Source of the DNA: Macrostomum lignano
Lineage: Eukaryota
Length of the DNA: 64,000 bases
Reading direction: 5' to 3'
Assembly: GCA_002269645.1 (NCBI GenBank)
Contig: NIVC01003150.1
Location: forward strand, 1 to 64,000
The position numbers and the translations under genes were made by a program. Within the stretch, counting starts at the first letter, position 1. Each line of letters starts with the position of its first letter. A model generated the notes under the pieces. It saw nothing but the letters and a program-made list of their open reading frames with translations, did no database searches and was not told where the DNA came from. This document shows, piece after piece, positions 5,192-17,499 of the stretch.

Positions 5192-5197
5192 GGGGGT
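5192..5197. repeat. Target site duplication, left copy (GGGGGT; right copy 15701-15706)
   Basis: Identical hexamer directly outside both TIRs; 6-bp TSD is typical of Polintons. Confidence 0.9.
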
Positions 5198-5842
5198 ACT
5201 ACTAAGGGATTCCGTATGGCGCGATTTTGCGAAGGTCCGTCGGGCTGATGTCGGCCTCTAGCACCGCGGCAAGGTGCTCCCTCGGGGTGTACCACCTCCC
5301 CCGGGGTGTACCTCCAGCGGGGTGGGTGTCCAGCGAGTGTACCTCCAGCGGGGTGGGCCTCCCGCGAGTGTACATCCGGCCGGCTGGGCGTCCAGCGAGT
5401 GTACCTTCAGCGCATGGGCCTCCCTCGGGGTGTACATCCGGCGGGGGGATTCCCGCCCCTCCCACCAATGTCGTGTGCACGCGGTTAGTGTAGGAAGGAA
5501 ACCCCGATGCTGACGCAGCCCTGTACACTGAGCAACCGGCCCCCCATGCGGGGGACAGAGAGCAGCCCCTGTAGCAGGAGGGGTAGTGCGTGGAGAGCCG
5601 CCATCCCCCTGTAGCAAGGGACAGATAACAGGCGGCCCCCTGTAGCAGTATGAGGTGGGGTACAAAGAGACACGGGGTGCTGGGACAGAGAGTGCGTGGA
5701 GGCACCCTGCGCTGCCCTGGCATGTCGCAGCACGCGGCGTGGACAGAGAGGGAGTGTGAGTCACACGGAGGGACAGAGAGCTTCCCCAGGCCGGGGTGGT
5801 AGAGGGACAGACCGGCGGTGAGTGATAGAGAGCTCCCCCAGG
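5198..5842 (+). repeat. Left terminal inverted repeat
   Basis: Begins ACTACTA; near-identical reverse complement of 15061-15700 apart from small indels and one 11-bp block. Confidence 0.95.
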
Positions 5843-5917
5843 CTGCAGAGGGACAGACAGGCCGCGAGCAACGTGTTAATGCAACCATAAATAGAAGCAG
5901 TGTACAAAACCCTCTGT

Positions 5918-6697
5918 ATGGAGAACATGGAAGAGGGTATAACTGATAACCCCTATTTCAGCAACGAGAGCGTGCGCGCCAGATTACCCCTCATTGAAAG
6001 ATTGTTATCAGACACTAGGAAAAGAATCGAGGGATTGACCGCAAAGGAGCGCTTAGAATTCACGTATCTAGCCCGGCTGGCATTCGTAACTGAAGTAAAC
6101 ATTGAGGAGAGAGAGGTGGCGTTGACTTGGGAGGAAGCAGAAGAAGCGATAAAAACCCGGTCCTGTATGGTCACAGCCAATCTATGGAGTGCGGCAATAC
6201 ACCTCAATGACACGAGGGGGTTAATTGACACAGAGTTTGTTAGACAAGTTCACACACGCGTGTGCAGAGGACTGCTCCCGAATGCAGGATCGTATAGAAT
6301 TAAGCACGCCAAGCCAGCAGGCGCGAGTATGTATTACAGTGCCCCAGAAAATATTGAACGGCAGCTGGTAAAATTAACTAGAGACATAAAAGAGCCACAA
6401 ATCTTGCGTGATGCAGTAGTGACAGGAGCATATTTCCTAGAAAAGTTTCTCACCATACACCCCTTTAGCGACGGCAATGGTAGAACTGCTAGGTTGTTAT
6501 TATCAAAGTTGATCAACCGGATTCTGCCAGAACCCGTATCATTTGCGTATGCAAATAGAGACACATATCTCAACTGTCTTTACGAAGCGCGCAGCAGCAA
6601 CCGGGGGCTCCTAGCGGCGTATTTACTTTTATCAATTGAGAGAACCGTTCTACAGTGGAGGGAATGGTTGGAAATCTGTTCAGACGGCAGCCTATAA
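5918..6697 (+). CDS. Fic-domain protein (putative AMPylase), class II-like
   Basis: Complete Fic motif HPFSDGNGRTAR; AGSYR flap; N-terminal TEVNIEE..LTWEE aligns by eye with the FICD inhibitory helix (TVAIEGNTLTLSE). First ATG at 5918. Confidence 0.92.
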   Translation: MENMEEGITDNPYFSNESVRARLPLIERLLSDTRKRIEGLTAKERLEFTYLARLAFVTEVNIEEREVALTWEEAEEAIKTRSCMVTANLWSAAIHLNDTRGLIDTEFVRQVHTRVCRGLLPNAGSYRIKHAKPAGASMYYSAPENIERQLVKLTRDIKEPQILRDAVVTGAYFLEKFLTIHPFSDGNGRTARLLLSKLINRILPEPVSFAYANRDTYLNCLYEARSSNRGLLAAYLLLSIERTVLQWREWLEICSDGSL

Positions 6698-6731
6698 ATA
6701 AATAAAATTGGTATTTCTCAACAATATCGAA

Positions 6732-7085
6732 ATGTACTGGCAATCGGAAATAGTGTACACCCACGTTGACAACGCAGTGCTGGAAGTGGGATATTGGGAC
6801 CCAAACAAACCGCGTTTCCGCATCCACTGTCAAAACTGTAGCTGTCCAGGAGCCGTGTTTAGTCGAGCACAATGGCATCGAATGAAATTTCTGGGCACTA
6901 GCTGCACAGATTACGATCTCGGAGGCGGCGCATCTATCAAAGTTATCGACGGGAAGCGCCTGTACGTAAAAGGAGACTGCGAATTTCACCTGTCAGACAA
7001 AATACTTTGTGCAGTTGAAAAGAATAGAGTCGACAATTTCTTCCACTATTTCTTTCTCGACGAATCTGACGAGTCAGAGGAATGA
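6732..7085 (+). CDS. Hypothetical viral protein, possibly PC4/Whirly-like
   Basis: ATG 39 nt after a TATAAATA box; LEVGY..P.FRI...GAVFSRAQWHRMK resembles the PC4 strand/helix pattern; acidic tail. Fold call is weak. Confidence 0.6.
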   Translation: MYWQSEIVYTHVDNAVLEVGYWDPNKPRFRIHCQNCSCPGAVFSRAQWHRMKFLGTSCTDYDLGGGASIKVIDGKRLYVKGDCEFHLSDKILCAVEKNRVDNFFHYFFLDESDESEE

Positions 7086-7462
7086 GCTGGATTTCTCGAG
7101 ACTACCCGCTTTTATCGAGCAAAGAAAGGGCAGAGTACGAGACCCTGAAAAAGTCCACAGACTGGTTATGCATTTGTCACGGCAAACCAATTCCCGAACG
7201 ATTAGTCACCTTTAATGTCGAGGTAGACGAAATTGGGCAAGGGCCTTACAGCACCCAAGAATATACAGATGCCCGAATTGACTACTACTTTAGAGACAAG
7301 ATGCATTTCAAAGCCAATCTTCAAAGAATGGAGCAGATAATTGCCCCAATATTACAAGAGGATCATCGTGAGAAAATACGGTACCGGAATCACCAGCCGA
7401 TTGCTCCCTCGTGGACGAACACCAAAGGATTTGGCGACCTAAACACAGTAGACCAGTGCTAG
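7082..7462 (+). CDS. Hypothetical viral protein (126 aa)
   Basis: ATGA start/stop overlap with the previous ORF; protein-like composition; no recognised motif. Confidence 0.7.
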   Translation: MSWISRDYPLLSSKERAEYETLKKSTDWLCICHGKPIPERLVTFNVEVDEIGQGPYSTQEYTDARIDYYFRDKMHFKANLQRMEQIIAPILQEDHREKIRYRNHQPIAPSWTNTKGFGDLNTVDQC

Positions 7463-7610
7463 CGAAGTTGACTATCAACCCTCACTGCAGCTGCATTAAC
7501 GACACGCCTCAAACCCCTCGACCAGAAGATCGAAACAAAAGGTTTATTTTTTCCGGATTTCCAACACCGGAAAGTGTCGTTAAAGAAGCACTATAACAAA
7601 AACGCCCAGC

Positions 7611-7640
7611 CACCCCACCCTCCGCCCAAGGGTATATAAG
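7611..7640 (+). promoter_or_regulatory. GC box plus TATATAAG promoter of the SSB-like/TBP-like unit
   Basis: CCACCCCACCCTCCGCCCAAGGGTATATAAG; TATA box at 7633 is 55 nt before ATG 7688. Confidence 0.55.
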
Positions 7641-7687
7641 GAGGCGCTCAGGGTGTGAGACCCACTCTCAGCAACAGCAGCAGCAAC

Positions 7688-8368
7688 ATGGATACCGTTC
7701 AAGACTACAATAGTGTTAGGATCGACCTATTCTCTCTCAAGTCGAGAGGTCCAAGCTACAACGGAACCGAGACGTACGACATTGAGTACGACGAACAGGG
7801 CCCTCTCTATCTTGCCAATGCGACGCCCGTACTGATTGTCAAGGGTGTGAGAACCGACAATGAAGGCCGCGAATTCATCATTCTTTCCCAAAAGCACTTG
7901 GAGAGCTGCATACCAGAAGCGTTCAATTCCGTGTGTCACCAGCTCTCTATCCAAGGAATGGCGCTATTGGGGTACAACCCCACTTTTGGCTGCGACAGCG
8001 CTGCATTCGGATTGGCTCACGACTTTAAAATGTACGACAAGAGCGGCAAGTTGTGCACCGACTACAAGAACAAGACGGGCTACTATAGAGTACTGTTCGC
8101 CCTAGACACGGCGGTGATTCACGACTCGGTTCTAACCGCGGTACCAAAAATTCAACAACTGCAATTCATAGAAGCTCCCAAGCAGGCGTTTGACCGCTGC
8201 TACTGGATTCCACCGTTAAAAATCAAGGTAGGACGCAAGCGCGGAGCTGGTGGAGCTGAGCGGAAACAAAAGCAACCGAAAAAACCGCTTGCAGAACGTC
8301 GTGTGCGTAAACAGGGTGTTTTGCGCAAGGTGGAACCACCTACCGAACTTGGACTGGGCGCGCGCTAG
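7688..8368 (+). CDS. Hypothetical viral protein, possibly OB-fold ssDNA-binding (DUF2738-like)
   Basis: ATG preceded by a GC box and TATATAAG. YDEQGPLYL..TP and YRVLFALDTAVIHD..TAVPKIQQLQFIE..FDRC resemble large-DNA-virus SSBs; basic NLS-like tail. ORF well supported, fold tentative. Confidence 0.65.
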   Translation: MDTVQDYNSVRIDLFSLKSRGPSYNGTETYDIEYDEQGPLYLANATPVLIVKGVRTDNEGREFIILSQKHLESCIPEAFNSVCHQLSIQGMALLGYNPTFGCDSAAFGLAHDFKMYDKSGKLCTDYKNKTGYYRVLFALDTAVIHDSVLTAVPKIQQLQFIEAPKQAFDRCYWIPPLKIKVGRKRGAGGAERKQKQPKKPLAERRVRKQGVLRKVEPPTELGLGAR

Positions 8369-8768
8369 AACGTTTCATAGACCCCGGGCATTGTACAACC
8401 TGAGGATCGGAAAGTGTACAATAAACTTTTTCAAACGTTCATTATCTGCCATTGTTTTTGGTTGCCAATCAACCAACGATGTGCTGCGTCTTTTTGCTCA
8501 ATGTAAACCAAACTCTGTTGTTATCACTACCGGTACTTATCGTGCAGAAGTTAATGTTAAGCCAAACTTTTTCCGCCTTGCCAACTCGAGCTCGCGCTGG
8601 GTTGAGTGGGAGAGTGAGGTATTCAATGGGCTTGTAATAAAGTCCCCATTCCGCAAGGCCAAGTGCCTGCTGTGCGGAAAGAATGGTCGGTTAGTGTTCC
8701 TAGGAATACGAAACTATGACGAACTGTGTAAAATGTACGACCACGTGACTGCTATTCTGCAACTCTAA
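8250..8768 (+). CDS. TATA-binding protein (TBP)-like protein, two-repeat core; no in-frame ATG
   Basis: RLQNVVCV ~ TBP [39 protein letters not shown] ~ [76 protein letters not shown] ~ [46 protein letters not shown]. Frame is open from 8232. Confidence 0.78.
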   Translation: [172 protein letters not shown]

Positions 8769-8806
8769 TTATGCTTTGCTTATAAATAAACAAAATATGC
8801 ACATGT

Positions 8807-9196
8807 ATGCACGCAATGCTTACCACCTTAATAATGACAAACGGAATTTCTCGTCTTTGTTCTTGCCGTCGCGAGCTAGAGGAGCTCGGTGACGCGCGAC
8901 CACATCGAAGGAGGGCCATTATTAGGGGAGCCGATAATGAGTTGATGCAGTGTCTGTGCGAGTTAAGCCACAATGTACTCAAGGGCAATATCGATCTATC
9001 CCCTAGACAGTTTGCAAGGTTGAAACGTTATAGAGAAGCCCTGCATGACATGGCCGACAAAAAACTGTCTATAAATAGGAAGAAGAATATGATACTATCG
9101 GACCCTCAAGTTGGAGGATTCCTACCAATTCTCGCCAAGATTGCTGCTCCGTTAATCACTGGACTGTTTGGTGGTCTGCTAGGACAACGACGTTGA
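8807..9196 (+). CDS. Conserved Polinton/adintovirus small protein with C-terminal GGFLP amphipathic segment (adenovirus pX-like)
   Basis: LCELSHNVLKGNIDLS...QVGGFLPILAKIAAPLITGLFGG pattern; true start may be ATG 8816 or 8834. Confidence 0.75.
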   Translation: MHAMLTTLIMTNGISRLCSCRRELEELGDARPHRRRAIIRGADNELMQCLCELSHNVLKGNIDLSPRQFARLKRYREALHDMADKKLSINRKKNMILSDPQVGGFLPILAKIAAPLITGLFGGLLGQRR

Positions 9197-9198
9197 AA

Positions 9199-9780
9199 AT
9201 GGACAAGTACGTTGTGGTCCCCGAGGAGGAATTCAATCAGCTTAGACAGGGTACTCCGCGAGAAATTGCCCCAAAATCGGAGTACGAAAAACTTGTAGAG
9301 TACAATGCAAAGCTACAGACCCAATTGGCTAAAGTAAAACCCCAAAAGACGACAAAGCAGCTATTTTCTGATAGGCAACAACGTATATGGAATATACTAA
9401 CAGAAAAGCACCCCAGCCTAAATTACAACCAATCGTGGGAAGTCGTTTTTGATGGTGAAACTTGGGGTGGCAGCAACGTTTTTGATCTTCTACAAGCCGT
9501 CACCACCAACACTAATAATCACCCGAAATATTCGACCGCTTTCTGGGCTCTGCTAGACAAGGCCCGTATACCAATGTCTATGCTCGGTCGGAAACAGCTC
9601 CCTGTGGAGGAAAAGAAGGTTGACCATATGGTTGGTACCGATGATTACCGCGATGAATATGAGCACACAATTGCGACAGACACCCGCGATTTAACGACCA
9701 CGCGCAACAAAGGTGTAAATGCTATGCCCAACTTGTGGATCAAGGTGCCGGGATGGGTAAATATCACGATTACCAACTAA
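9199..9780 (+). CDS. Conserved Polinton hypothetical protein
   Basis: MDKYVVVP start and W.VVFDGETWGGSNVFDLL...P....F...L...RIP pattern recalled from Polinton ORFs upstream of integrase. Confidence 0.65.
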   Translation: MDKYVVVPEEEFNQLRQGTPREIAPKSEYEKLVEYNAKLQTQLAKVKPQKTTKQLFSDRQQRIWNILTEKHPSLNYNQSWEVVFDGETWGGSNVFDLLQAVTTNTNNHPKYSTAFWALLDKARIPMSMLGRKQLPVEEKKVDHMVGTDDYRDEYEHTIATDTRDLTTTRNKGVNAMPNLWIKVPGWVNITITN

Positions 9781-9951
9781 GACCGCCCGGAACCGAAAAT
9801 ACGATACTCTTTATAAATAGAACCCTAATCCATACATAACCGCGCCCGGCGGTCATGGGCGCAGCAGCCGCCGCATCAAAGCTTTGTGTAGACAACTCCC
9901 CAGCCGACATTACGTGCAACTATTCATGCTGTGCATCCACACTTGTTGTCA

Positions 9952-11031
9952 ATGAGGGCTCTAACCGCTCTTCGTCGAGTTTACGAACAAGGAGCCGCCG
10001 CTTTTTCAAATGCTGCCCGTGTCTATCAGGAGGCCAAACGTCTGGCGCCAAACCTGACAAGACGCCAAACCAGGGAATGGCTAGAAACCCAACCGAGTTA
10101 CACCCGTCACCGGAGAGTCAACAGGACATTTAAAACGGGAAAAGTAATGTCGGGAGGATTCATGGAAACTCTACAAGCCGATTTGATGGACATGTCGCGA
10201 TACAAACGTTGGAATGACGGACATAAATATATACTAGTTGTTATTGATGTGCTTAGTAAGCAGGCTTTTTGTAGGGCAATTAAACTAAAGAGTGATACCC
10301 CCGCAGCGTTTGAGTCAATGTTGGCGAATGATTTCCCTGCCCGCCCCCTTTACCTGCACGTGGATCGGGGTACCGAGTTTTATAATCAGCGAATGCGCCG
10401 CATACTAAAAGACAATAATGTTAAAATGTACAGCACCAACTCTGTGTACAAGGCAAACATGGCCGAGAGGCTGATTAGAACTCTTCGAAAGCGTCTGGCT
10501 CGCTACTTTGAGCACAACAACACGTGGCGTTGGGTTGACTACTTACCCAATTTGGTAGGTAATTACAACAACACGACGCATTCTACTATTGAGATGAAAC
10601 CGTCAAGTGTAGGGTTCCACAATCAGAAGCGTGTGTGGGAAAAGCTCTACCCGGATCAGCAAAAAGACGACCCCGTATATAAAAAGGGGGATTTTGTGAG
10701 AATTTCGAAATCTCGCCGGGCATTCGACAAGGAGGCGTACGACATGTATAGTGAGGAGGTGTACATTATATCCAAAGTTTGTCCTGGACCCCCACATTTT
10801 TATCGTATTTCTGATTTGTCTGGTGAAGTGATTGAGGGACGGTTTTACTACAATGAACTGTCCAAATCTACCCGACCCGAGCGTTTTGTAATCAATAAAG
10901 TTTTGCGTAGAAACGTGTTAATAAATGGTGTTGCGCACCATTACGTTAGCTGGCGCGGTTATCCCGACACTTTTAATTCATTTGTACCTGTAAATGAAGT
11001 TATAAATATACGTCAACGTAATAATAACTAA
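9952..11031 (+). CDS. Retroviral-type (rve) integrase with C-terminal chromodomain
   Basis: DDE triad LQADL / LHVDRGTEF / AERLIRTL; YILVVIDVLSK; chromo-like YVSWRGYPDTFNSFVP. Confidence 0.97.
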   Translation: MRALTALRRVYEQGAAAFSNAARVYQEAKRLAPNLTRRQTREWLETQPSYTRHRRVNRTFKTGKVMSGGFMETLQADLMDMSRYKRWNDGHKYILVVIDVLSKQAFCRAIKLKSDTPAAFESMLANDFPARPLYLHVDRGTEFYNQRMRRILKDNNVKMYSTNSVYKANMAERLIRTLRKRLARYFEHNNTWRWVDYLPNLVGNYNNTTHSTIEMKPSSVGFHNQKRVWEKLYPDQQKDDPVYKKGDFVRISKSRRAFDKEAYDMYSEEVYIISKVCPGPPHFYRISDLSGEVIEGRFYYNELSKSTRPERFVINKVLRRNVLINGVAHHYVSWRGYPDTFNSFVPVNEVINIRQRNNN

Positions 11032-11034
11032 TGC

Positions 11035-12170
11035 ATGGCTACCATGCATCTCTTTCTGCCTAGCAATGCGTGCCCCGAGCACTATCCCGAAAATAATCCG
11101 GCTCATTATTTTATTAATTTACCGGACACTCTCCACTTTCCGAATCATGAGGTTTGCCTCGAACGGATCTACTTTACCAAAGAATTTGAATCTTTCAAAA
11201 AATCTATACCGATCACCATTCGCGAACAGGAGGGCCTCTTGACGGCTTCGTCGTTTGCAAACCTTTGTCTCGCAGCGGGTCTGAAAACCCCTGAAGAATG
11301 TATTTCCGGCTTTCTAAACGGTATCCGATACGTTGAAGGGGATAATAAGAAAATTGTCTTTTTAAGAACATCCCCAACCGCCTTTATGATTGTGAATACT
11401 TCAAAATCCACCGTCGGCATCAAATTCCCGGATACCCTACCCAAGGTGTTTAAACTAGTCGCCGGCTTCGAGTCTAATGAGGATCTACCTACTGAACTCG
11501 TATTACACGCGGGGTGTGCAGCCTCCATCACCGCAGTTGTTGAGGAACCGACTGTGCAGTCAATGGACCATGCTCCAATAATAAGACAAGTTACTAGCGC
11601 AGCGTCTGATCAAATATTTTTTATGCAGGGAGGATACTATAGTACACCTAAAAGAATGGTGGAGGAACTCAACAATTTAATTTGGAAACGGATCAAAGAT
11701 CTCATAGCGGCTCCAGCACCTAGAACGGACTTTTTCGGATACAGCGAAGTTACGAATAGGTGTTATTACATTGGCTCGATGGATTACATGTTTGGGCTGG
11801 GGCGCTTGACCGGCATGCTTGGTTTCCCAGAGCATGATTATACAACCCCATTTTTCGGTATATCGGACTTTCAGCCACATCAATGGAATTAACCGGTGGA
11901 ATACAAACAATGTACATCTATTCGAGCATAGTCGATTCTGTTATTGTAGGAGACGTTAAAGTTCCTCTGTTGGGAGCTATACCGATGGATCCCAAAGTTC
12001 AGGGCGGTCGCGAGTACTACGAGTTTGTCAATCCGGCATATCTACCGCTGGTTAAGCACCCATTCAAAACTATTGAAGTACAAATTAACGATGATATGGG
12101 CAGGGATATGACAAAAGTAATGAGGGGCAAGACCGTCTTGAGCGTTAACATCCGCGAAAAGAAGCTATAA
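11035..12170 (+). CDS. Minor capsid protein (penton), split by a 1-nt frameshift near 11851-11855
   Basis: N-terminal HLFLPSNAC..YPENNPAHYFINLP (11035-11892) and C-terminal MYIYSSIVDSVIVGDVKVPLLG..YEFVNPAYLPL..IEVQINDDMG (11883-12170) are the two halves of a Polinton penton. Confidence 0.85.
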
Positions 12171-12213
12171 ATAAACAGCACAGCCTCAGTAAACTATATC
12201 CTAGTGCTTAATC

Positions 12214-12558
12214 ATGCCTTCTATTCTGATTGGTGGAGCTTTGCCTGTTTTCGCGGGCGCCCAGAGGGGCAACGGTTTGTTTGGAAGCATTGCCCGCTTC
12301 GCGCTGCCAATTCTAAAGAGTTTTGGTAAAAACGTTCTCCGTCATGGTACTAGAGCCCTAGCAACTACTGTTAACGATAGCCTCGAGCAAGGAGGCAATT
12401 TGAAGGAGTCTGTCCTGCGCAATTCTGTTCAGGCTGCCAAGGACGCCTTTAAAGACACGGTTACCCAAAGGGGTAGCGGACGAAGAAGAAAAAAGGCTCC
12501 GAAGCGTCTCAATTCAGACATTTTCAGCACTATAAATAAAAAGCCCCGCTTCAATTAG
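12214..12558 (+). CDS. Polinton core/membrane-lytic-like protein (QRGxG motifs)
   Basis: FAGAQRGNGLFGSIARFALPILK amphipathic helix, second QRGSG, basic tail with DIF. Confidence 0.75.
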   Translation: MPSILIGGALPVFAGAQRGNGLFGSIARFALPILKSFGKNVLRHGTRALATTVNDSLEQGGNLKESVLRNSVQAAKDAFKDTVTQRGSGRRRKKAPKRLNSDIFSTINKKPRFN

Positions 12559-12587
12559 ATTCGCCGAATCGAGTCTGTCTACTAAAC

Positions 12588-13871
12588 ATGTCCGAGTGTC
12601 TGTGTACAAAGTCCGAGTTTGAGCTCTTTGCCCCTCGAGCCCACCAGATTGCCGCTGTAGGTTCAACTACTGAAGAAATCCACCCGGTTGCCAGCGTCGA
12701 AAATGCGAGTGTGGTTGAGTTTAGAATTGTGGGCGGCGAGACGTTTGTCGATCTTAATGACATTGATCTCGAGATTAAAGGTTGTATTAAAAGAGCTAAT
12801 GGAGCCGATTTGGCGGCGGATTCAAACGTGGCGCCAATCAATTACCTCTTGGAGACCATGTTCAAAAACGTGTCTCTTTCCATAAATGGTACACATATCG
12901 AGTCTAGCAACAACAACCATGCCTACAAGGCGTACATTCGTACATGCTTGAGTTATGGGTCTGATTCAAAGTCTAACCAACTGCGGATGATGGGCTACGC
13001 TAAAGACGCTGGGGGTCAAATGGCTGCGGTTGGAAATCCTGGCTTTGTAACTCGCAAGGCGATGGCTGCCGGTTCTCGAACATTTCACCTGTATGGCCCT
13101 CTTAGTCTCGACTTTTTTGTCACCAACGATCGTATGCTGCTACCCTACACTGATATGGTGGTTACGCTCACTCTGCAAAATTCGGGATTCGTTGTAGAGA
13201 ATCACGCCGAAGGGGTTGATGCAAAGTTGGTTCTTCAAAGTGCAAAATTACACGTTCGTCGGGTAAAGGCTAACCCCCAACTGGCCTTGGAGATTGAAGA
13301 ACAGCTGGCAACTCAGAATGCAGTCTACCCCATCGAGCGCCTCGTTGTACACAACACCTCTGTCGCTGTAGGAGTTCGCGACGTGTCAATCAATAATATT
13401 TTCCCGGAGCAGAAGCCTAAACTTGTCATTATGGGGATGGTAAATAGTGCCGCATATAACGGGGTGGCTACCCATAATCCGTTCAATTTCGAGCCATTTG
13501 GGGCTGACAGTGTGGCCCTGTACAAGGACGGTGTCAGTCTGTGCGGTCAACCATTCACTCCAAGGTTCGCTGCCCAAAACTATGCTCGCGAATACGCCAT
13601 GCTGTTTAAGAGCCTAGGGAAAATGAATCGCGATTTGGACATTGACCTGTCATATTCGGATTATCGCGCCGGTTACTGCTTATTTGCGTGGAATCTAATG
13701 CCCGATATGGAACTGGGTGGACATAGCATGCCTCGCGAGAGAGGGAATCTGACCCTACAGATAAAGTTTTCTGCAGCCCTACCTGCCGGGATTAACGTTT
13801 TGGTGTTTGGTTACTTTGACAACGCGGTGCAAATCACTAGAGGCCGCCAGCCCATTCTGGACTACGTATGA
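12588..13871 (+). CDS. Major capsid protein (double jelly-roll, Polinton PY)
   Basis: 427 aa; CTKSEFELF, EFRI, INYLLETMFKNV, YKAYI..LSYG, PKLVIMGMV..AYNG...NPFNF, GYCLFAWNLMPD, GNLTLQIKF. Confidence 0.95.
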   Translation: MSECLCTKSEFELFAPRAHQIAAVGSTTEEIHPVASVENASVVEFRIVGGETFVDLNDIDLEIKGCIKRANGADLAADSNVAPINYLLETMFKNVSLSINGTHIESSNNNHAYKAYIRTCLSYGSDSKSNQLRMMGYAKDAGGQMAAVGNPGFVTRKAMAAGSRTFHLYGPLSLDFFVTNDRMLLPYTDMVVTLTLQNSGFVVENHAEGVDAKLVLQSAKLHVRRVKANPQLALEIEEQLATQNAVYPIERLVVHNTSVAVGVRDVSINNIFPEQKPKLVIMGMVNSAAYNGVATHNPFNFEPFGADSVALYKDGVSLCGQPFTPRFAAQNYAREYAMLFKSLGKMNRDLDIDLSYSDYRAGYCLFAWNLMPDMELGGHSMPRERGNLTLQIKFSAALPAGINVLVFGYFDNAVQITRGRQPILDYV

Positions 13872-14305
13872 ACACGTTGGAAATTTTGGAGTGTTTAAAA
13901 CTACCTGTGGAAGTGCACGTTTGCCCTCTCGACAGAATTCCTGCACCTGTTTACCCTGCTGCATATGTAATTAATTTTGACACGGGTAATCTGCCAGGCA
14001 CCCACTGGGGACTGATTTGCCTACACGATGATAAGAGTGTGACATTTTTTGACCCTCTGTGTATTGAACCCGTGCCGGAATTGCTCTCGGCTTGGATCTC
14101 GAAGCATGTACATTCACCTGTTGCTATGAATCGCCACCCTGTTCAACACCCTCTAAGTGTAGCGTGTGGGCCGCATGTGATTTTTGTGGCCGAAAAGCAC
14201 TTTTTAGAGGGGTTGTCGATTGAAAAGATTTTAAGGGAATGTTACTCTACCAATCTGCTTGAAAATGATTTGATGGTTCGAAAACATGTTCTACAAATAA
14301 AATAG
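13868..14305 (+). CDS. Adenain-like cysteine protease
   Basis: Catalytic residues present: GTHW, FFDP, VQHPLSVACG. Confidence 0.95.
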   Translation: MNTLEILECLKLPVEVHVCPLDRIPAPVYPAAYVINFDTGNLPGTHWGLICLHDDKSVTFFDPLCIEPVPELLSAWISKHVHSPVAMNRHPVQHPLSVACGPHVIFVAEKHFLEGLSIEKILRECYSTNLLENDLMVRKHVLQIK

Positions 14306-14339
14306 TTTTTAATATTTGGAGTGTCAACTCGCCCTGAAA

Positions 14340-14969
14340 ATGTACCAAACAATTGATCCTGACGCTCTAAAGTTTGCTCCAAATACTTCGGCGATTTTTG
14401 CTGGTGTTAACCAGAGCGGAAAAACAACTCTTGTTAAAGAATTGCTGCGAAACGAGTTTTTTCAGGACCCTAAGCCTGTTCGCGTTGATTGGTTTGGGCA
14501 CTATCCAGACCCGGAACTGTTTGAATTACCGTACCCTGTCAATTTTCGCTCGTCTACATTTAACCCTGAAACCTATGTTCCCGCTCCGAATATTCTACTC
14601 GTTGTCGATGATCAAATGCAAGCCATGGAAAAAAACGCTGCTTTTACCGCATTTTTCACTCGCAAAGTCAGCCATGTGGGATTCCGGCTTTGGTACCTTG
14701 TACAAAACCTGTTTGCCAAGGGCAAGGAGCACCGCACTCAATCCCTTAACGCAAACTACCTTGTATTGTTCCGCAATGTACGGGACGTTAGTACAGTCGC
14801 CCATATTGCAAAGCAGCTTGTCCCCGCTAACCCAAAAAGTTTTGTTCAAATGTACGAAGACGCCACTAGGGAGCCCTACTCCTACTTGATTGTTAATTGC
14901 TTGCAGAACGCATCTGTTCGCTACTATGCTAATGTGTTGGGGCGCTACCCCGTAGTTTATGCTAAATAA
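14340..14969 (+). CDS. A32/FtsK-HerA genome packaging ATPase
   Basis: Walker A GVNQSGKTT, Walker B LLVVDD, LVQNLF, RTQSLNANYLVLFRNVRD. Confidence 0.95.
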   Translation: MYQTIDPDALKFAPNTSAIFAGVNQSGKTTLVKELLRNEFFQDPKPVRVDWFGHYPDPELFELPYPVNFRSSTFNPETYVPAPNILLVVDDQMQAMEKNAAFTAFFTRKVSHVGFRLWYLVQNLFAKGKEHRTQSLNANYLVLFRNVRDVSTVAHIAKQLVPANPKSFVQMYEDATREPYSYLIVNCLQNASVRYYANVLGRYPVVYAK

Positions 14970-15060
14970 AACACTGTTGGAGAGCTTTGCTCTGTTTGCC
15001 GGATGGCCTGAACCTGAAACAACTAAAATACGTGTTTTTTCTTTTCAAGTCCTCTACTGC

Positions 15061-15700
15061 CCTGGGGGAGCTCTCTATCACTCACCGCCGGTCTGTCCCT
15101 CTACCACCCCGGCCTGGGGAAGCTCTCTGTCCCTCCGTGTGACTCACACTCCCTCTCTGTCCACGCCGCGTGCTGCGACATGCCAGGGCAGCGCAGGGTG
15201 CCTCCACGCACTCTCTGTCCCAGCACCCCGTGTCTCTTTGTACCCCACCTCATACTGCTACAGGGGGCCGCCTGTTATCTGTCCCTTGCTACAGGGGGAT
15301 GGCGGCTCTCCACGCACTACCCCTCCTGCTACAGGGGCTGCTCTCTGTCCCCCGCATGGGGGGCCGGTTGCTCAGTGTACAGGGCTGCGTCAGCATCGGG
15401 GGTTTCCTTCCTACACTAACCGCGTGCACACGACATTGGTGGGAGGGGCGGGAATCCCCCCGCCGGATGTACACCCCGAGGGAGGCCCATGCGCTGAAGG
15501 TACACTCGCTGGACGCCCAGCCGGCCGGATGTACACTCGCGGGAGGCCCACCCCGCTGGAGGTACACTCGCTGGACACCCACCCCGCTGGAGGTACACCC
15601 CGGGTGTACACCCCGAGGGAGCACCTTGCCGCGGTGCTAGAGGCCGACATCAGCCCGACGGACCTTCGCAAAATCGCGCCATCTGCCAGTCCATAGTAGT
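15061..15700 (-). repeat. Right terminal inverted repeat
   Basis: Ends TAGTAGT; CCTGGGGGAGCTCTCTATCACT at 15061 is the reverse complement of 5821-5842. Confidence 0.95.
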
Positions 15701-17499
15701 GGGGGTCACGCCAGTTAAGGGTCACAGGGACGGATCAAGATCTCTCTTGAAGGGACATCTGTTTCGCAGGGGATCATTTTATCATTTCATTTCAAGAGAA
15801 ATTCAAGCGAGATTATAGCGCTATAATTAGCACCACAGTAGGGATCGTAATGCTATTTTTGGTGTCACAGGAGGGATCTTAGTAGCATTGATCGCAGATG
15901 GGATTTGACTCCCTGCAGACGTGGATCCAGAAAATTTCTTGAGGAGGGAACCCCTACACCCTGACGAAGCCCTTAAGCGCCAAAATAAGAAAGCAAGTGC
16001 CAAACTAGCAAGGGTCGAGGCGCAAAAACTAGGCATCATATTGCTGGCAGTCAAATGACGGTATCTCCTGTGATTTATTGACCGTTTATGTTACCAATGT
16101 GCCGGATTTACGAGTAACTGGAAGAAGAAGCAACACCTGCTTCTTACAAGTTCATTTCGGATTTGAGAGAGGCGTTGGAGAAAAGTTGGAACAAGGTTTG
16201 GCGGAATAGGCGAGCCTCCCCGCCGCATCCCGGACGGACCGGAGCCCCTGCAGTTAAGTCAAGCAAGCTACTATTTGAAACAAAGCTCCTCCCTCTTATG
16301 CGCTACCTTGGAGACCGCTATTTAACTGCGACCATATCTCGTAAATAGACAAATGTACAATGCTTTCAAACTAGTCATTGTGGATAGAAATAAGTTCGCA
16401 TGAATAACATCAAATCACGCTATTTTGATCTCCAATTGGAAGCCTTGAATAGCAGAGAAATCCGAAAGATTTCCAACAAAGCTATCAGCCCCATTTAATC
16501 CCTTTCGGGGCGATTCCGGGTACATGGGAGTGATTCAACGCACATTTGATTTTCCCATCATGGTTCCGAAATTAAAGTTGGACAAAGAAGAGACACCTTT
16601 TAGGGAAATAAGTTAAGCTTAGACGGTAAATTAGTGCATTAGTGCCAGACAGAGAGTATTGAAATTGAAAGCATGCATCAGCTTTTAGAGCGCAGCGATA
16701 AAGGCGGATCAATTAGGTTCAGTCAAGCTGGCAAAGCGTCAAATATTGTATATGGATAAAATGATGTGGAGAATGTTTTTTATAAATTCACTCCGCGAGT
16801 CAAGCTGGTGGAAATCTATTTCACATATTGATGTTCTCTGTACGTCAGTTTTATCAACTAAATTCATTTCTATACGAACCAGAATTAATTGATCAAACAG
16901 AAAATATATAATAACTGAATAGTTCAGTCAAAATATGAAAAGTATGGTTTCTCTTTAATAAAAACCTTATGCAAGTTTCTAAATATAGCCATTCCTAAAT
17001 CAGGTGCCAAAAGGTTTGAGGATATAAAAACACAGCAATCTAAGCAGCATCCTTGACAGCAGAAGCAGCAGACAGGATGCTGGCAATGGCCGCCCGCAGT
17101 GAGTGTGTGGCAACAACAAATGACCAGCCTCTATGTTTAGGACGCAATTAACAACAAGTCAATGTTTTGTAATTGCACTTTAGAGCAACGTAATGGATGG
17201 AGCTTTACAAGGAAAGCAACTTAAACACTAGGCCAGTAATGGTATAAGCCATCAGAGTGGTTAAAGGACCTAGGCAGCACCGGGACGACGAGTAAGAGGA
17301 TGCATTAAATTACATGAAATTAAGACACCGCATCTGTCTGCCAGTGCCAATGCACATAGAAAACGCACACATAAATATGAATTCTCCTATTCATTGCATG
17401 CACTGTGCAGCATCACTTTCCATTGCACTGATTTAGCCATAGTTTCCATGCAAACCAAATTTATATTTTACGATCAAACCCAAGCAGACATTCCGATTT

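Follow-up and report, generated by a model that had tools for sequence, protein, structure and literature searches.

How do Polintons control their genes, and how does a silent integrated copy turn on its virion genes? These questions are raised by a virus-like element of 10.5 kb (5198-15700) that is integrated in a 64,000-nucleotide (nt) stretch of Macrostomum lignano DNA (contig NIVC01003150.1, forward strand, positions 1-64,000; hereafter the window), in which one octamer, TATAAATA, stands ahead of most genes and one open reading frame (ORF) resembles the TATA-binding protein (TBP). An earlier note on this DNA had proposed a cascade in which host TBP makes the viral TBP-like protein, which then reads the octamer as a late promoter; this interpretation is partly supported by comparison of the element with its relatives. 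A TBP-like frame was detected in every Polinton-like lineage examined in this host, each with a box of its own. Since each related element pairs a different TBP-like protein with a different box, these results suggest that each virus lineage runs a private transcription switch.

Number, placement and conservation of the box

Exact copies of TATAAATA were found at seven positions of the element (6693, 8781, 9070, 9812, 11001, 12166, and 12531), all on the + strand, which is the coding strand. These are the coordinates given in the earlier note, which was likewise correct that three boxes serve as Ile-Asn codons within coding sequence (SINR, VINI, and TINK) and that three are not followed by AA; the remaining settings are two stop codons and two intergenic regions, and four boxes overlap AATAAA. 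Between the terminal repeats (9,218 nt), the seven copies on the + strand and none on the − strand compare with an expectation of 0.17-0.30 (Markov orders 0-3), in agreement with the 0.3 per strand previously estimated. The octamer was the top-ranked 8-mer (P = 8 × 10−10 to 3 × 10−8 uncorrected; about 5 × 10−5 to 2 × 10−3 after multiplication by 65,536 8-mers). Over the whole window, 12 copies were counted on both strands, a number reached by 0/100 shuffles (mean 2.37), with the five copies outside the element (2 on + and 3 on −) spread over 53.5 kb. A pyrimidine (C or T) directly precedes 7/7 boxes. As claimed, the boxes lie ahead of most viral genes: 6/7 are found 34-57 nt 5′ of a start codon, a zone that makes up 5.8% of the element (P = 2.5 × 10−7); the starts at 8816 and 9855 were picked after the boxes were known, and the 5/7 obtained without that choice still give P = 1.2 × 10−5. 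The boxes and two of the near-copies are as follows.

5886..5893, +: CATAAATA, one-mismatch box, 32 nt 5′ of the Fic ORF; weak alone; in 8/8 other fetched family copies
6693..6700, +: box 1, TATAAATA, over the Fic stop codon, 39 nt 5′ of the ORF at 6732; the sister family keeps the box without AATAAA
8781..8788, +: box 2, TATAAATA, intergenic
9070..9077, +: box 3, TATAAATA, within coding sequence (SINR), 129 nt 5′ of the ORF at 9199
9812..9819, +: box 4, TATAAATA, intergenic, 43 nt 5′ of the ORF that starts MGAAA (MG ORF)
11001..11008, +: box 5, TATAAATA, within the integrase (VINI)
12166..12173, +: box 6, TATAAATA, across a stop codon; the AATAAA it overlaps is conserved in the window and sister families
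12531..12538, +: box 7, TATAAATA, within coding sequence (TINK), 57 nt 5′ of the capsid gene; overlaps an AATAAA that is conserved in both families
14292..14299, +: TACAAATA, one-mismatch site, 48 nt 5′ of the ATPase; overlaps AATAAA

The near-copy at 5886 had been counted among the promoter boxes; it is genuine, but the + strand has five one-mismatch sites in all, and six sister-family copies yielded no counterpart of the Fic gene that follows it.

All seven boxes were present in 8/8 fetched copies of the window family. In the sister family, 7/7 boxes were letter-identical at the matching places in five of six copies, the sixth stretch beginning past box 1, so that the enrichment and conservation by which the earlier note had proposed to check its motif were both found. 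Fourfold sites were identical between the two families at 145/387 positions (37%), the 30 nt 3′ of intergenic boxes 2 and 4 shared 10/30 letters, and the chance of all three in-frame boxes staying is roughly 0.005. Judged by this comparison, the boxes are under selection, and their strand bias, position, and conservation together make it well supported that they are promoter boxes and not merely polyadenylation [poly(A)] signals. The alternative that they are only poly(A) signals, codon bias, or chance draws on the AATAAA overlap at 4/7 boxes, two of which keep AATAAA in the sister family. It is largely refuted, and we regard it as highly improbable: two further boxes lose AATAAA in the sister family but keep the box, so that poly(A) use is at most a second job, as the earlier note had held; three boxes never occur with AATAAA; the analogous boxes of other lineages contain none; and enrichment and position argue against chance.

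TBP-like proteins and boxes across lineages of one genome

Searching the genome with a TBP profile, in which 150 of 330 candidates were scored, recovered host TBP, a TRF2-like paralogue, and many divergent copies, of which those fetched reside in polymerase-bearing elements, relatives with a long polymerase-like ORF. A TBP-like frame is also present in each of four distant elements initially identified through their capsid; it was called in one by a tblastn match to host TBP, in two by alignment, and in one (a broken copy) by eye only. The TBP-like proteins formed four clades, one per lineage (support 98-100/96-99), outside the cellular TBP group under midpoint rooting. Each of the four viral clades has relatives in public data; of the 149 new proteins that a profile search listed, viral types accounted for five, and all others were closest to host TBP. 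No related loci were found in viral or metagenome contigs outside this genome.

For the window family, its sister family, and nine other elements, sense-strand copies of each box were counted within gene blocks spanning 7.5-9.2 kb. The lineage boxes were found to be TATAAATA, TATAAG(C/T), TATAAGAA, and CTTAAGAA. The first occurred 7 + 7 times in the window and sister families and 0 times in the nine other elements. TATAAG(C/T) was counted 5, 7, 10, and 5 times in the four elements of one clade (expected 0.5-0.8) and 0-2 times elsewhere; TATAAGAA occurred three times in one element (expected 0.11); and YTTAAGAA occurred 8, 7, 7, and 7 times in four elements (expected about 0.4) and 0-1 times elsewhere. 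The boxes precede equivalent genes at similar distances, 20/34 box-to-ATG distances being 42-57 nt (starts hand-assigned). The first unit or TBP gene of each element instead carries TATAWAAG (9/11) or TATAWAAT (2/11; several of the 11 are close kin). The two lineages with the most similar DNA-face residues also have the most similar boxes, TATAAGAA and CTTAAGAA. Because each TBP-like lineage in the host has its own box, the link of boxes to a viral TBP gains independent support.

Some further observations were made in these elements. The TBP-like frame is followed in L095, L096, L097, and L100 by an ORF with Walker A, which by eye we take to be nucleoside-kinase-like; in L097 both are in one frame. 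The TBP gene of the CTTAAGAA lineage has its own ATG (L083 9531, L087 9284).

In the window, the TBP-like frame belongs to the following unit.

7611..7640, +: host-type promoter; CACCC/GC element at 7611-7627 absent from the sister copy, TATATAAG at 7633-7640 conserved
7688..8368, +: 226-amino-acid (aa) ORF; codons 1-180 are the predicted first exon; formerly labelled single-stranded DNA-binding protein (SSB), fold unproven
8228..8294, +: predicted 67-nt intron, GTAGGA ... TTGCAG, phase 0 at both ends; predicted from its sites
8295..8768, +: TBP-like frame, 157 aa, predicted second exon; PF00352 E = 9.5 × 10−5; first Met at residue 147

The earlier note had described this promoter as a distinct GC box plus TATATAAG. 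The TATATAAG part is real and conserved; the GC box as a conserved feature was rejected, being missing from the one sister copy checked. The promoter of the ORF at 7688 closely resembles one in a distant lineage (L083, L087, and L093), with a CACCC run, CTCCGC, and then TATAWAAG ahead of a gene that is presumably PC4-like (labelled by eye); this resemblance points to a common host activator. The label SSB for the 226-aa ORF found no support from any search: its first exon gave no Pfam, PDB, or Atlas match, one member matched a phage SSB family at E = 0.55, and no homology was detectable between the first-exon proteins of the window family and the TATAAG lineage (probability 0.5%).

The TBP-like domain was modelled as a two-repeat saddle fold (pLDDT, the predicted local distance difference test, 88) that matched TBP structures in Foldseek (E = 4 × 10−9; template modelling score about 0.72), from an alignment of 11 rows that included host TBP, so that the fold is partly given by construction. 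The best viral structural matches were divergent TBP folds of large nucleocytoplasmic DNA viruses. The domain is 21% identical to host TBP. In the residue numbering of Table 1 of PMC12529657, which names E188 as a TFIIB contact, E188 and F190 were invariant in all viral rows covering them, and a neighbouring acidic residue was kept in the alignment. Among the four intercalating Phe, the window domain keeps F116 and F190, has lost F207, and is uncertain at F99, which is next to a gap; of the base-reading Asn, N69 is kept and N159 is replaced by Thr (Thr or Ser in all viral rows). P191 is lost in the window family.

The TBP-like frame has no ATG at its start, and such TBP genes are easily overlooked for this reason. 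A donor at 8228 and a CAG acceptor at 8292-8294, both in phase 0, predict that the frame is fused by splicing to the upstream protein to give a 337-aa product. Donor and acceptor were in phase 0 in 8/8 other window-family copies; 6/6 sister copies have an AAG|GTAGG donor and a TTGCAG acceptor; and four distant elements have a GTRAG donor in phase 0, a pyrimidine-rich CAG acceptor, and introns of 259-619 nt. At the protein level, four outside homologues retain signs of both splice sites: IK-V precedes a residue with a codon fitting the +5 G, and the length then varies up to the acceptor. As weak evidence on the other side, no fused form was found among the four homologues of the 226-aa ORF (124-396 aa searched) or among the longer relatives sought for the TBP of another lineage. 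Assembled contigs from 4/24 sequencing runs over 5700-15200 contained no joints and no starts, a result that counts neither way because contigs drop rare forms. Programmed frameshifting into the TBP frame was rejected, since the frame that the upstream ORF occupies at this point is not the same in all sister copies, and so was an assembly error behind the missing ATG, the same frame being present in identical copies and in the sister family.

Another route to a start would be trans-splicing of the frame to a host spliced leader whose terminal AUG starts it, or initiation at TTG 8289. The acceptor is in phase 0 and fits the flatworm trans-splice motif YTNCAG given in PMC8629364, and flatworm leaders end in an AUG able to initiate (PMC9851317). 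The host leader matches a published flatworm leader, and a leader end followed by a donor had 34 exact genome matches (control 0), many clustered on few contigs; at the three leader loci inspected, the upstream letters are not those of leader genes. Conserved upstream donors speak against trans-splicing: a phase-0 donor is conserved upstream in all six element families that have the acceptor, and trans-splicing is favoured where no upstream donor exists (PMC8629364). We therefore consider this route doubtful. The genome also contains dispersed leader pieces that no donor follows (135 matches, control 22; L101, L104, and L105), which are probably processed copies.

Readers of the boxes

Taken together, we consider it reasonably probable that a host-read first unit makes a viral TBP-like protein that reads the lineage box and is the main reader of the core-promoter boxes. 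The following order of events is proposed from the sequence features: (i) host TBP/TFIID would start the TATATAAG unit at 7633; (ii) the unspliced RNA is predicted from conserved sites to yield the 226-aa protein or, alternatively, removal of the 67-nt intron would yield the 337-aa fusion of the first 180 residues with the TBP-like domain; and (iii) this domain would bind YTATAAATA about 30 nt before each start, where its retained acidic stirrup would bring in host TFIIB and RNA polymerase II. The integrase, core, capsid, and accessory genes would thus be switched on together, with box-less genes riding the upstream message via ATGA overlaps and two boxes doubling as poly(A) signals of the preceding gene. 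The cascade of the earlier note agrees with the lineage-specific pairing and the host-type first units and fits poorly in one lineage, where the TBP gene lies behind the lineage box. A more ambitious version, which we put forward only tentatively and think rather unlikely, has at least four mutually exclusive TBP-and-box pairs acting as one-protein private channels to polymerase II, the window-family TBP arising solely when splicing joins it to a DNA-binding replication protein, so that splicing and replicating DNA together time the virion-gene switch.

Several observations weigh against a viral TBP as the main reader. For the protein, the PF00352 score of 22.6 bits falls just under the curated cut-off of 22.9 bits; the fold model owes part of its shape to the host row in its alignment, and a model from the single sequence was poor (pLDDT 42). 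Because F207, P191, and N159 are lost and F99 lies beside a gap, the domain may bind DNA weakly or differently. The window acceptor has no pyrimidine tract (0.36). For the boxes, the canonical TATA consensus is TATAWAWR, with transcription starting about 30 nt downstream, and a scan matched TATAAATA to it; the TATAAATA family is therefore the weakest case for a private box, and since TATAAATA alone of the four boxes also fits the host consensus, both host TBP and viral TBP may act on it. A test of out-of-frame ATGs for a start at +30 gave no signal (5 in 748 nt versus 8 in 1,577 nt, P = 0.41). For the pairing, the TBP gene of the CTTAAGAA lineage lies 77-83 nt 3′ of the lineage box, with the exonuclease gene mostly carrying TATATAAGAA; this is a poor fit to a plain two-step cascade, and a positive feedback loop is possible there. 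The four lineages amount to few independent pairs, as kin share both traits, and no TBP-less control element was among the lineages examined.

Much of this evidence is shared with an alternative that we judge unlikely but serious, namely that host TBP/TFIID reads the boxes as ordinary TATA boxes, of which one strong variant is kept throughout, while the viral TBP has another role such as shielding, titration of host cofactors, or replication. An intact TBP and a TRF2-like paralogue are present in the host, TATAAATA fits the TATAWAWR consensus, and the viral domain has lost several DNA-face residues; on the other hand, four different private boxes in one genome are hard to explain by one host TBP, CTTAAGAA is not a TATAWAWR box, and the first units carry TATAWAAG/T while the remaining genes carry the lineage box. 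Less probable still is a reading in which a large DNA virus acting as helper uses the boxes as its late-promoter or initiator signals, with a different helper per lineage. A/T-TAAG is present in three of the four boxes and TAAAT in the fourth, which resembles the late motifs of baculoviruses and poxviruses, and the element has no polymerase of its own; virophages carry the helper's late promoter before most genes (PMC6723459). Against a helper, each lineage encodes a TBP-like factor of its own; in addition, its first promoters are of host type and it keeps introns and AATAAA signals, all of which suggests transcription by host nuclear polymerase II. No helper virus turned up, although no helper search was made.

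The reader and box proposed here share features with several known systems. Like cellular TBP and TATAWAWR, they have the fold, the box consensus, and the spacing to the start codon; unlike cellular TBP, the viral protein diverges strongly from that of its host, has an altered DNA face, and lacks an ATG at the domain start. Large nucleocytoplasmic DNA viruses likewise have a divergent viral TBP fold. Such viruses mostly bring their own RNA polymerase, unlike the element, which is without one. The virophages mavirus and Sputnik resemble the element in that one conserved motif precedes most genes of a small integrating capsid-coding element (PMC6723459), but their reader is coded by the giant helper, whereas here the element codes the candidate reader.

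The closest functional parallel is late transcription in beta- and gammaherpesviruses, which according to PMC12529657 uses ORF24 from Kaposi's sarcoma-associated herpesvirus or BcRF1 of Epstein-Barr virus and a TATTWAA box. Common to both, by that account and by prediction here, are a TBP-fold protein encoded by the virus, structural genes placed behind a dedicated TATA-like box, earlier genes with host-type promoters, and use of host polymerase II. Unlike ORF24 as described there, the TBP domain of the element is minimal and keeps the TFIIB-contact acidic residue that ORF24 lacks, while N159 and F207, which ORF24 keeps, are both lost. The element further differs from herpesviruses in being an integrated Polinton-like virus and in that a single genome houses several lineages whose boxes differ. 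None of the five further viral activators of the herpesvirus complex was evident in the 10 kb, where Pfam on 15 frames gave no such match and no direct search was made. By analogy, the element would work like beta/gammaherpesvirus late transcription, possibly with one protein, and is not a member of that system.

If this is true, TBP mimicry, known from herpesviruses and giant viruses, would also occur in small integrating viruses, where it takes a much simpler form, and the four natural TBP variants with four boxes in a single genome would form a ready series in which to study DNA reading by the TBP surface. A self-coded TBP paired with a lineage box would provide a testable switch and a short motif for calling late genes in other elements. 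A literature search found no paper on Polinton TBPs with promoter boxes; its scope did not extend to most subscription journals, to Repbase, or to the supplementary maps by Starrett et al., where such genes may be annotated. In the accessible text of Starrett et al. 2021 (PMC8502044, 10.1101/697771), TBP appears solely in a figure legend on non-animal dataset elements, and the word promoter is unused.

Gene content and type of the element

The element is bounded by terminal inverted repeats of about 645 nt and a 6-bp target duplication, and its remaining features are listed below.

5192..5197: target-site duplication GGGGGT, left copy, 6 bp
5198..5842, +: left terminal inverted repeat; the element starts ACTACT
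5918..6697, +: Fic/DOC-domain ORF, cargo; PF02661 E = 6.6 × 10−14, HPFxDGNGR motif
6732..7085, +: 117-aa ORF with no assigned function
7082..7462, +: ORF with no assigned function and no box of its own; ATGA overlap with the ORF at 6732..7085
8807..9196, +: basic ORF with an amphipathic tail at its end, a probable virion core or membrane-active protein
9199..9780, +: ORF with no assigned function; weak match in a distant family
9855..10133, +: 92-aa cysteine-rich MG ORF; lies partly over the integrase in a different frame and is conserved in the sister family
9952..11031, +: retroviral-type integrase; PF00665 E = 1.9 × 10−9
11035..12170, +: probable minor capsid protein, from position and relatives; two frames here, broken near 11.88 kb
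12214..12558, +: basic 114-aa ORF, putative core protein
12588..13871, +: probable major capsid protein, 427 aa; no Pfam match; 30-33% identity to its counterpart in polymerase-bearing elements
13868..14305, +: probable maturation protease; weak Peptidase_C48 match (E = 0.061); ATGA overlap with the capsid gene, no box
14340..14969, +: probable packaging ATPase; Walker A, weak AAA match, relatives
15061..15700, −: right terminal inverted repeat, closing the element with AGTAGT
15701..15706: target-site duplication GGGGGT, right copy

The capsid, protease, and ATPase assignments are probable and follow from motifs, gene order, and relatives, Pfam matches being weak or none. Like Polintons, Mavericks, and adintoviruses, the element has inverted repeats, a 6-bp duplication, an rve integrase, and a probable capsid, protease, and ATPase. 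Unlike Polintons and Mavericks, no protein-primed polymerase was found in the window or sister family: no ORF between the terminal repeats encodes a DNA polymerase, and there was no tblastn match in eight family copies or in the flanks of two sister copies. The strict Polinton definition requires the polymerase (PMC5499653), so the element fails that definition yet works like a Polinton. Its ends, ACTACT...AGTAGT (ACTAC...GTAGT in the family and sister family), are also the reverse of the AGTAGT...ACTACT of polymerase-bearing elements, which was present at or beside the ends of 6/8 such elements, no repeat being found in the other two.

When the genome was searched for the capsid, 98 of 451 candidates were scored and yielded 101 matches, which fall into three tiers of about 100%, about 88%, and 30-33% identity. 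The capsid protein was 100% identical at ten loci including that of the window, and eight fetched copies were 98-99.9% identical to the window DNA; such near-identical copies suggest recent spread, although haplotype duplicates may account for some of them. Near 7.42, 9.73, and 11.87 kb, three ORFs of the window copy look broken; differences between contigs and the window are also listed at these places, and the breaks are likely assembly or copy variation. Small ORFs with an NCC/YSCC-like motif precede the integrase in two TATAAG-lineage elements, comparable to the MG ORF, which is possibly lipid-modified. Elsewhere in the window, a host exon at 1873-2175 (−), which by eye we take to resemble mitochondrial ribosomal protein L14, adjoins a tandem array at 2290-2765 rich in CCAATCAG units, and a long (TATC)n microsatellite from about 27450 accounts for the GC-skew of -1 up to 30 kb.

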